The notes under the pieces: generated by a model
What the model was told of the DNA's origin: nothing
Database searches by the model: none
Seen by the model: only the letters and a program-made list of their open reading frames with translations
In this document: piece after piece, positions 16,775 through 17,686 of the stretch
Layout: each line of letters starts with the position of its first letter
How positions within the stretch are numbered: the stretch's first letter is position 1
Made by a program: the position numbers and the translations under genes
Assembly (NCBI GenBank): GCA_964388745.1
Contig: CAYMBP010000001.1
Span: forward strand, 28,244 to 92,243
Length of the DNA stretch: 64,000 nt
Source of the DNA: an uncultured Pseudomonadota bacterium
Lineage (GTDB): Bacteria > Babelota > Babeliae > Babelales > RVW-14
Reading direction: 5' to 3'

Positions 16775-17686
16775 CTAGGTTAATAAGTTTTTAAGATAAA
16801 TGAGTGATGCTTGTGTTTTTGTGCATTGCAGGGAGTGTTCTTTTGTCATAGAATCTGAGATAATAAAAAAGGGATTGTTCAAAGCGTCTTTTAGTACAAC
16901 AACTGATATCCAGTGCCAAATGCGTGGCTTGAGAATAATATTGAGATAACCATAGCTGTTAAGAATGCCCTGAAGAATAGTATTAATATCTTTTTTAAAA
17001 GTACGGTCTTGGTGAATAATATAGTCTTGGCTCGGGTCTTTTTCGTCAAGAGCAAGAATCGCACTTGTAGTGAGAAGTGAATTATCTGTGTTATCTTGAT
17101 TGACGCATTTAAGCGTATCCATGATATTAAACGCTGTAAGAGGAGCGTTATTTAGGTTTGAATTTTTGCTGTTTTTATCATTATCCTCTTGTAGAACATA
17201 TTTTTCAATAAATTGGTCCAAGCCATCTGGTGTTACATTTCTTGATGGGAGAAGTTGCTTTACGTTATTGACGTTAAGATTGCCTTTGGATACATCCTTG
17301 AGAATATTATTTGTTTGGCTTGTGGTGTAGGTGCTAATATGGCCGCAGACAGTTCCAATATTTTGAAAGAGGATCTCTCCTCTATATTGAGCATAGTAGG
17401 TGTTTGTTGCTAAAAAGTGTTGATCTCCTGGAGAGATGTTTTGTGTTTTATCTTCGTCTTCAGAAAGATCGATGGTGATTTTCTCTTCCTTTTTCAGACA
17501 AGGTCGCTTAGCATATTGACCAGTGATTTCAATATCATTATCTTCTTCAGAGTCAGAGTCTATGGTAATGATATGGCGTTTCATACATTCAAGAGAGCTG
17601 GAGAGTATAAGGCCTGCAGCACAGAATGATACGATGAATTTTTTATGGATAGTAGTGAATAAGGGTAATAAGTATGTACGCTTCAT
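16775..17686 (-). CDS. secreted protein with SIM-like acidic motifs and a papain-fold (UCH/Josephin-like) Cys...His signature
   Basis: Frame is open to 17701, but ATG 17686 has GGAG 9 nt upstream. Hydrophobic N-terminus '...FIVSFCAAGLILSSSLECM'. 'IITIDSDSEEDNDIEI' and 'KITIDLSEDEDK'. 'FQNIGTVCGHI' (Cys codon at 17345-17347). 'RIWHWISVVVL...FFIISDS' (His codon at 16913-16915). Confidence 0.45.
   Translation of the reverse strand: MKRTYLLPLFTTIHKKFIVSFCAAGLILSSSLECMKRHIITIDSDSEEDNDIEITGQYAKRPCLKKEEKITIDLSEDEDKTQNISPGDQHFLATNTYYAQYRGEILFQNIGTVCGHISTYTTSQTNNILKDVSKGNLNVNNVKQLLPSRNVTPDGLDQFIEKYVLQEDNDKNSKNSNLNNAPLTAFNIMDTLKCVNQDNTDNSLLTTSAILALDEKDPSQDYIIHQDRTFKKDINTILQGILNSYGYLNIILKPRIWHWISVVVLKDALNNPFFIISDSMTKEHSLQCTKTQASLIYLKNLLT

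Follow-up and report, generated by a model that had tools for sequence, protein, structure and literature searches.

SUMO-interaction motifs (SIMs) are built from a hydrophobic core of the type [VI][VI]x[VIL] or [VI]-D-L-T and a following run of acidic or phosphoserine residues, as in PIAS, PML and Daxx. Ligases that join such a motif to a RING finger are known from eukaryotes (RNF4, Slx5/8) and from herpesviruses, where ICP0 of herpes simplex virus 1 (HSV-1) and ORF61 of varicella-zoster virus (VZV) are the viral analogues. Among bacterial effectors, functional SIMs, in the sense of short hydrophobic stretches flanked by acidic residues (PMC12267903), have been described in SulF/Lpg2832 of Legionella (PMC11115209) and in ErnA and Sup3 of Bradyrhizobium, the latter a ULP1-like protease with a SIM of its own (PMC12267903). 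Here we consider a pair of genes from an uncultured, intracellular member of the Dependentiae (TM6), contained in a stretch of 64,000 nucleotides (contig CAYMBP010000001.1, positions 28,244 to 92,243) that we call the window and to which coordinates refer unless another locus is named. The focal gene (16775..17701, minus strand; 308 residues from its first ATG) encodes a protein with two tandem SIM-like motifs, while the gene immediately downstream encodes a RING-H2 protein in which the core of these motifs recurs. Residue numbers in the focal protein count from the ATG at 17701 unless stated otherwise.

We tentatively favour the view that the focal protein is an exported orphan effector which docks on SUMO or on SUMOylated host proteins by way of its tandem SIM-type motifs, probably together with the RING-H2 partner, and whose C-terminal fold is unassigned. 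If so, it most likely works by mimicry of short linear motifs rather than as a recognisable enzyme. The first motif (residues 44-59, IITIDSDSEEDNDIEI; 17525..17572, minus strand) reads IITI followed by DSDSEEDN over residues 44-55, so that seven of the eight residues after the core are Asp, Glu or Ser. The second (residues 74-85, KITIDLSEDEDK; 17447..17482, minus strand) has the same I-T-I-D core; over residues 75-84 it reads ITIDL and then SEDED, which comes close to the [VI]-D-L-[TS] type. Both lie in a segment of 52 residues (43-94) with a net charge of -9 and 15% Ile, which thus holds two copies of I-T-I-D with a Ser/Asp/Glu tail. Three to four hydrophobic residues, an acidic or phosphorylatable flank and a non-globular setting, the features by which SIMs are recognised as short linear motifs, are present in both cases.

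To gauge how common such motifs are we used a background set of 312 Dependentiae proteins (119,336 residues), drawn from the window and from comparison loci. A loose SIM pattern matches 98 times, in 73 of the 312 proteins. A core followed by at least six Asp, Glu or Ser among eight residues occurs three times, and when at least seven of eight are required only the first motif of the focal protein is left. The tetrapeptide I[TS][IL]D occurs nine times in the same set, four times with at least three Asp, Glu or Ser among the next six residues, and three of these four acidic-flanked occurrences lie in the gene pair, two in the focal protein and one in its RING neighbour. This local concentration is striking. 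The motifs of the focal protein are more than a chance likeness and, by the usual definition, good SIM candidates; an initial suggestion of SIM-like motifs, made in a preliminary description of this DNA, is to that extent borne out, since they fit the SIM definition, are far rarer than the background and share their core with the adjoining gene.

That adjoining gene (15481..16731, minus strand) encodes 416 residues that comprise a signal peptide, a coiled-coil-like segment, the RING-H2 finger, a basic cluster, a SIM-like motif, a Ser/Thr tract and an unassigned C-terminal domain. The finger (residues 123-177; 16201..16365, minus strand) was read directly from the sequence and has the full ligand pattern C-x2-C-x11-C-x-H-x2-H-x2-C-x27-C-x2-C, although Pfam RING matches are weak (PF24921, 8e-5, below the curated cut-off). 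The basic cluster, KKQKRSAKQSTEQTKKKAKK, resembles a nuclear localisation signal and the Ser/Thr tract is of the poly-Ser/Thr kind. The motif itself, IISLDDKD (residues 211-218; 16078..16101, minus strand), has the I-[TS]-[IL]-D core in common with the focal protein, and SUMO-targeted ubiquitin ligases likewise unite RING and SIM in one protein. Because the RING gene begins only 43 nucleotides past the focal gene, is preceded by AGGAGG (16739..16744, minus strand) and is separated from it by no terminator-like site on the minus strand, the two genes are probably co-transcribed. The SIM-like reading of the focal motifs gains weight from this association with a RING-H2 gene that carries a motif with the same core.

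On the favoured reading, the focal protein would be exported by Sec and reach the host cell, where each motif could form a beta-strand paired with the groove by which host SUMO, or poly-SUMO chains, bind SIMs, the chains being considered because the two motifs stand in tandem. Phosphorylation of the CK2 type at the serines of S-x-x-[DE] may raise the affinity for SUMO. Docking would bring the C-terminal domain, of about 210 residues, to SUMOylated host proteins, and the RING-H2 partner, with the same motif, could ubiquitinate those proteins as SUMO-targeted ubiquitin ligases do. For the C-terminal domain itself, a cysteine (iso)peptidase with C119, H263 and D283 is a possible, if less likely, option.

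Comparison with the described systems brings out both likenesses and differences. SulF, ErnA and Sup3 share with the focal protein a host-directed reading and a short hydrophobic core with acidic flanks, and Sup3 in addition combines the motif with a protease domain. These effectors use type IV or type III secretion and their binding to SUMO has been demonstrated, whereas the focal protein has a Sec-type N-terminus and is known from sequence alone; unlike them, it has two motifs in tandem and no sequence relatives at all. SUMO-targeted ubiquitin ligases combine SIM and RING (bioRxiv 10.64898/2026.03.11.710994); here the combination is found in the RING neighbour while the motif recurs in the focal protein, which has no RING of its own. 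Further differences are that both proteins of the pair carry putative export signals, that the ligase role of the neighbour is putative, and that the neighbour has a single motif copy placed after the RING instead of before it. The secreted ORFans of Chromulinavorax destructans resemble the focal protein, with its putative signal, in that they bear signals and lack database relatives, but the paper that reports them describes no SIM-like motifs or RING partners (PMC6561590), whereas the focal protein offers a specific, testable motif.

Several considerations weigh against the interpretation as a SUMO-docking effector. SUMO binding, export and delivery to the host are all readings of the sequence itself, and a Sec signal would bring the protein to the periplasm, from which the host cytosol or nucleus is a further step. 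SIMs are short and degenerate, as the 73 background proteins with a loose match illustrate, and the second motif (ITIDL) fails the strict core of two hydrophobic residues, any residue and a third hydrophobic one. The significance of the motif enrichment is overstated because the patterns were chosen after the sequences had been viewed. Without homologues, purifying selection on the motifs cannot be demonstrated. The core S-D-S-E-E-D also fits CK2 or acidic-cluster sorting motifs such as that of the furin tail. Finally, the hydrophobic N-terminus carries little weight because N-termini of this sort are so common in the genome.

This last point is also an argument for an alternative in which the focal protein is a bacterial envelope or periplasmic protein without any host target, anchored or exported by its hydrophobic N-terminus, its acidic stretch serving as a disordered linker or ion-binding segment and its resemblance to SIMs and proteases being coincidental. 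We consider this rather unlikely, though it survives better than the other alternatives. The protein begins with a K/R-rich start and a long n-region, followed by a hydrophobic segment (residues 22-40, FIVSFCAAGLILSSSLECM; 17582..17638, minus strand) with an h-region at residues 22-36 and an indistinct cleavage site (SSS/LEC); the Kyte-Doolittle mean over 19 residues is 1.77, in keeping with the hydrophobic N-terminus noted at the outset. The segment is plausibly a Sec signal peptide or a signal anchor, cleaved signal and membrane anchor being both compatible with it, and a hydrophobic segment of the export type begins the RING neighbour as well. However, signal-like N-termini are found in 18 of the 43 genes of the window (42%), among them those for an ankyrin-repeat protein, Ndk, a thioredoxin and an aminopeptidase P. 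Export by itself is therefore no indication of a host target, and the label 'secreted' is plausible with little specific weight. (Examples of such genes lie at 8898..9431, 50105..50572, 58657..59997 and 1442..2941; in Ndk the NDK domain starts only at residue 43.) The proportion agrees with that in Chromulinavorax destructans, where signal peptides are found in about 44% of coding sequences, a set in which ORFans and putative factors of host manipulation are over-represented (PMC6561590). An envelope role would further accord with the frequency of loose SIM-like patterns and with the fact that the window shows no evident secretion system reaching the host. It sits less well with the rarity of the strict motif in the background and its recurrence in the neighbouring gene, with the RING-H2 finger of that neighbour, a domain without known use inside a bacterium, and with the position of the pair in a variable, lineage-specific slot of the genome, typical of host-interaction genes.

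The slot becomes apparent when the window is compared with related genomes. The flanks of the focal gene are housekeeping in character (priA, a tandem Ddl-Ddl fusion, rpe, psd, an M16 peptidase gene, ndk and a gene for a histone-H1-like HC2 protein). The fused D-alanine-D-alanine ligase (17847..20066, minus strand; 739 residues) consists of two complete Ddl modules in tandem; it is 50-57% identical to proteins on 47 contigs of Dependentiae/TM6 (Babeliales), with nothing closer, and the fusion is kept in all 47 loci. The order psd-rpe-ddl-[slot]-priA-DUF374-M16-HC2 is preserved in two of these loci, L002 and L006, with differing contents in the slot. In L002 (12561..15716, minus strand) it holds a protein of 1051 residues, in which an unassigned N-terminal domain (about 650 residues) is combined with leucine-rich repeats at the C-terminus, and in L006 (12429..15027, minus strand) two small membrane proteins together with a glycosyltransferase-like protein that is duplicated internally. 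Since unrelated genes fill the slot between ddl and priA in these two loci, the focal gene and its RING neighbour are lineage-specific cargo.

Searches for relatives of either protein agree with this. Both are singletons among about 15 billion proteins. The focal protein has no match in Pfam, NCBIfam, PHROGs or PADLOC (for Pfam and NCBIfam even at E <= 10) and none among the sequences of the PDB at E <= 10. A search of 5.8 billion protein clusters returned only the protein itself, and the RING neighbour is likewise unique, without a relative, in that collection. An exhaustive phmmer search with residues 95-308 against 1.84 billion representatives gave the self-match and one other, a protist RING-kinase-TLDc repeat protein (P0002), which we rejected as a relative since it is matched only through a low-complexity stretch rich in Asn and Lys; the stretch in question, rich in Asn, Lys and Asp, lies at residues 171-185 (QEDNDKNSKNSNLNN; 17147..17191, minus strand). 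Scans of metagenomes and viruses with the focal protein as query found no relative. Nor is there a homologue of it or of the RING protein in the 47 ddl-anchored Dependentiae loci (Ddl identity 50-57%), even at E <= 1 relative to the open reading frames (ORFs) of those loci; the collections searched contain no genome closely related to the source. That the two proteins of the pair might be paralogues of each other is excluded (BLASTP E 0.56).

Could the focal gene, then, be a young or decaying orphan without settled function, its frame open through recent origin and its motifs mere accidents of an AT-rich sequence whose product is rich in Asn, Asp and Ser? Its singleton status would fit, as would the low-complexity insert and the outcome of AlphaFold2, which, run without an alignment, sees no fold (low-confidence models, with a predicted local distance difference test score of 32.2 for the full-length protein and 35.6 for residues 95-308). 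Codon usage is slightly atypical too: the G+C content at third codon positions (GC3) is 0.339 as against a window mean of 0.269 (standard deviation 0.034), about two standard deviations above, and the synonymous-codon likelihood is 1.5 standard deviations low; the gene may be young or acquired. On the other hand, an open frame of this length (308 codons) is expected by chance only about 1.4e-5 times in the whole window, the frame is packed tightly against the next gene, it is annotated by NCBI (P0001), and the hydrophobic strand patterns of the C-terminal part look like those of a folded domain. We conclude that the ORF is a genuine gene whose promoter and ribosome-binding site are plausible, and that an orphan without function is an unlikely explanation. 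The promoter-like site, TTGACA-17 nucleotides-AATATT with a TG extension (17735..17763, minus strand), lies in the 160-nucleotide gap after ddl; it is a consensus match only, and promoter-like sites in this region are no more numerous than in shuffled sequence. The stop codon is at 16775-16777. The NCBI annotation gives 303 residues (16775..17686), beginning at the ATG at 17686 (MKRTY...), and this is probably the true start because a Shine-Dalgarno-like GGAG, read directly from the sequence (17696..17699, minus strand), stands 9 nucleotides before it. The preliminary description had mixed the two starts: its nucleotide coordinates follow that at 17686, whereas its residue labels Q113, C119, H263 and D283 count from 17701.

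More specific is the proposal, with which the description of this locus began, that the C-terminal domain has a papain fold and acts as a deubiquitinase or as a protease of ubiquitin-like proteins, akin to the UCH or Josephin families, with Q113 in the oxyanion hole, C119 as nucleophile and H263 and D283 completing the triad, the SIMs guiding it to SUMO or ubiquitin conjugates. We think this improbable. The candidate Cys box (residues 110-125, ILFQNIGTVCGHISTY; 17327..17374, minus strand) contains Q113 and C119, and the candidate His/Asp box (residues 260-284, RIWHWISVVVLKDALNNPFFIISDS; 16850..16924, minus strand) contains H263-W264 and D283 in a strand-turn-strand pattern. All four segments quoted originally, these two and the SIM-like pair, are where they were said to be, and the spacings given for Q113, C119 and H263 are correct (Gln 6 residues before Cys, His 144 after it), with D283 a further 20 residues on. 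The order Gln, Cys, His, Asp is also right for clan CA, and the context agrees with that clan: Q-x5-C-G comes first, a hydrophobic strand later opens with H-W, and after a turn another strand closes with D-S. Strand, H-W, strand, turn and a strand ending in D-S is the arrangement on the His side of papain-like and CE-clan enzymes. Deubiquitinases and proteases of ubiquitin-like proteins have a conserved aromatic 'gatekeeper' immediately following the catalytic His (Hermanns et al. 2020, PMC7391069), and H263-W264 has this form; the same authors point out that a His-aromatic dipeptide without conservation is most likely due to chance (PMC7391069), and here it is seen in one sequence only. A composite pattern (Q-x4-6-C-[GAS], then H-aromatic with a strand, then D/N) picks out the focal protein and none of the 311 other proteins of the Dependentiae set, and arises in 9 of 5000 shuffles (0.18%), figures that overstate its significance because the pattern was fitted to this protein after the fact. 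Josephin-like deubiquitinases or 'clippases' do exist in bacteria, namely in Simkania, Parachlamydia and Burkholderia (bioRxiv 10.1101/2024.07.24.604956).

We compared the protein with three family profiles, built for Josephin from ATXN3, ATXN3L, JOSD1, JOSD2 and 115 database Josephins (119 sequences; only vertebrate JOSD1/2 appeared among the 120 matches listed in the profile protein search), for UCH from UCHL1, UCHL3, UCHL5, BAP1 and YUH1, and for Ulp1/SENP (C48) from SENP1, SENP2, SENP8 and Ulp1, the sequences of the latter two sets being validated against the PDB. All HMMER filters were off, and 3000 + 3000 shuffles served as control. The best local hhalign and hmmsearch alignments do fall on the boxes, UCH on the Cys box and Josephin and C48 on the His/Asp box, the latter being the best local match to both profiles (P only 0.03-0.1). 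Yet the UCH score is that of chance (-1.4 bits, empirical P 0.48, 48% of shuffles being as good), and the best hhalign alignment, KQTIGNSCGTIGL with FQNIGTVCGHIST, has P 0.3 and a probability of 0.2%. For Josephin the profile gives E 0.03-0.04 as a single comparison and an empirical P of 0.07, and hhalign aligns only the His box, over 18 columns (P 0.046, probability 1%). C48 scores best of the three (empirical P 0.02), with a HMMER alignment of vHWsLlvidlkk..lkylDs to residues 262-296 (domain E 0.03-0.17), although the score comes mostly from a non-collinear low-complexity stretch with Asn at the column of the catalytic Cys, and hhalign aligns this stretch only (P 0.056). No result survives correction for the three families tested.

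The individual signatures lead to the same verdict. The active-site boxes of UCH and Josephin had been quoted accurately, as a check against reference sequences confirmed. For UCH (MEROPS C12, PF01088) the likeness lies in Q-x5-C-G with I-G two to three residues before, 6 of 13 residues being identical between the two segments aligned above. The PROSITE-type pattern of the family is Q-x3-N-[AS]-C-G-x3-[LIVM]2-H. Against this the protein reads Q-N-I-G-T-V-C-G-H-I-S-T-Y-T, in which Q, C and G fit while N, [AS], [LIVM]2 and H do not; the mismatch at T-V before the Cys had been recognised, and further positions fail too. The distance from C119 to H263 is 144 residues as against 71 in UCH-L1 (about 70-80 in the family), the remainder of the domain is unmatched, and profile, active-site box, Cys-His spacing and hydrophobic helix all speak against membership. 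The UCH-like active site is accordingly not upheld.

For Josephin (MEROPS C86, PF02099) the picture is more mixed. The Cys precedes the His, and the His box has the family form, H-W-x-x-[VL] at a strand start with a hairpin to a strand [FY]-x-[LI]-[ND]-S, in the focal protein HWISV...FFIISDS (HWFTVRKLGKQWFNLNS compared with HWISVVVLKDALNNPFFIISDS). It is the top local match of the Josephin profile, but over 18-20 columns at P 0.05-0.1, and the distance from His to Asp is 20 residues as against 15 in ataxin-3; so short a motif is no proof of membership. The claim of a Josephin-like His box thus holds as to form, whereas its statistical support (P 0.046 by hhalign, 0.07 empirically) is lost on correction for three families. 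PF02099 has no match, the family profile gives no significant one, the Cys-His spacing is 105 in ataxin-3, and of the invariant Cys box Q-x4-C-A-x-H-x-L-N-N (L13, C14, A15, H17, L19, N20 and N21 in alignment A1) the protein, with V-C-G-H-I-S-T-Y, has only the Cys and an off-register His. Membership of Ulp1/SENP (clan CE) fails on the order of residues, Gln-Cys...His-Asp instead of His-Asp-(Gln)-Cys. Direct reading likewise rejected the Cys and His boxes of USP, the D-x-x-C motif of OTU and a lipobox, and also a PDI-like C-G-H-C, the sequence being C-G-H-I.

A further difficulty concerns the nucleophile itself. In 12 reference enzymes of the UCH, Josephin and SENP/Ulp1 families, five of them UCHs, the buried central helix is formed by the 12 residues that follow the catalytic Cys, and 5-8 of these are non-polar, whereas the 12 after C119 (GHISTYTTSQTN) include one, and eight are Ser, Thr, Asn or Gln. 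So polar a stretch is a poor fit to the helix of a buried papain-type nucleophile. Together with the lack of any Pfam, NCBIfam or PDB match at E <= 10, it tells against a papain-fold deubiquitinase of the UCH or Josephin kind, a reading which we regard as unsupported rather than refuted.

A bolder form of this idea would make the two orphans a bacterial SUMO-targeting cassette, in which the RING-H2 protein ubiquitinates SUMOylated host proteins through its SIM and the tandem-SIM partner is a cysteine isopeptidase too divergent for any profile to recognise, or of new fold (triad C119, H263 and D283), acting on SUMO, ubiquitin or mixed chains in a protist host. We hold this to be very improbable. 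No bacterial RING-plus-SIM ligase turned up in our literature search, so that the RING-H2 protein of such a cassette, if real, would as far as that search showed be the first case in which a bacterium mimics a SUMO-targeted ubiquitin ligase; viruses are known to do so. Scarcely credible, lastly, is a circularly permuted protease of the Ulp1/SENP type, in which the boxes HW..V.....DSM and Q-x-x-G-[ST]-x-C-G would correspond in swapped order to HWxLxVxD...YxDSM and QQxNGxDCG of SENP: C48 is the best-scoring of the three families, its HW-containing segment aligns to residues 262-296 and, by our own arithmetic, the segment lengths roughly fit a permutation, but the score is the non-collinear, low-complexity one described above, the conserved WLND motif is missing, we know of no permuted C48 enzyme, and the sequence scored no better when deliberately permuted.

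Other genes of the window deserve brief mention. A histone-H1-like HC2 nucleoprotein (PF07382), of a family best known from Chlamydiae, is encoded next to the M16 peptidase gene in this Dependentiae genome (9533..10066, minus strand) and also in L002 (21179..21535). An 837-residue protein (30284..32797, minus strand) starts with a signal-like segment and carries at its C-terminal end a nuclease domain of the bacterial EndoU kind (PF14436), a layout resembling that of a polymorphic toxin. DabA (PF10070) and a proton-antiporter-like DabB (25349..28935, minus strand) suggest a putative system for inorganic carbon uptake, a surprising find in a parasite that depends on its host. Seven more ORFs, of 184-523 residues, are without a Pfam match (at E <= 1e-3 for 21855..22655 and at E <= 1e-5 for the other six: 3074..4009, 23830..24795, 29447..30208, 38780..39334, 40383..41954 and 41982..42662). 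Five of the seven (those starting at 21855, 23830, 38780, 40383 and 41982) pass the cut-off for signal-like hydrophobicity, 3074..4009 narrowly misses it and 29447..30208 fails it; the strict SIM-like motif is found in none of the seven.

Likeness to UCH and Josephin active sites at the level of motifs is insufficient ground for calling an orphan protein a deubiquitinase; if the C-terminal domain were nevertheless an isopeptidase, it would belong to a family that is invisible to current profile searches. We see the interest of the locus as moderate, in that it yields a cheaply testable hypothesis in a poorly known phylum, but one resting on short motifs in a protein without relatives. Dependentiae are widespread and almost unstudied parasites of protists; nearly half of their proteins bear export signals, and for the majority of this half no function is known. 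Against this background, an exported orphan pair with a SIM-type motif in common, one member of which carries a RING, would provide a concrete hypothesis for how such a parasite may tamper with SUMO and ubiquitin signalling in its host.

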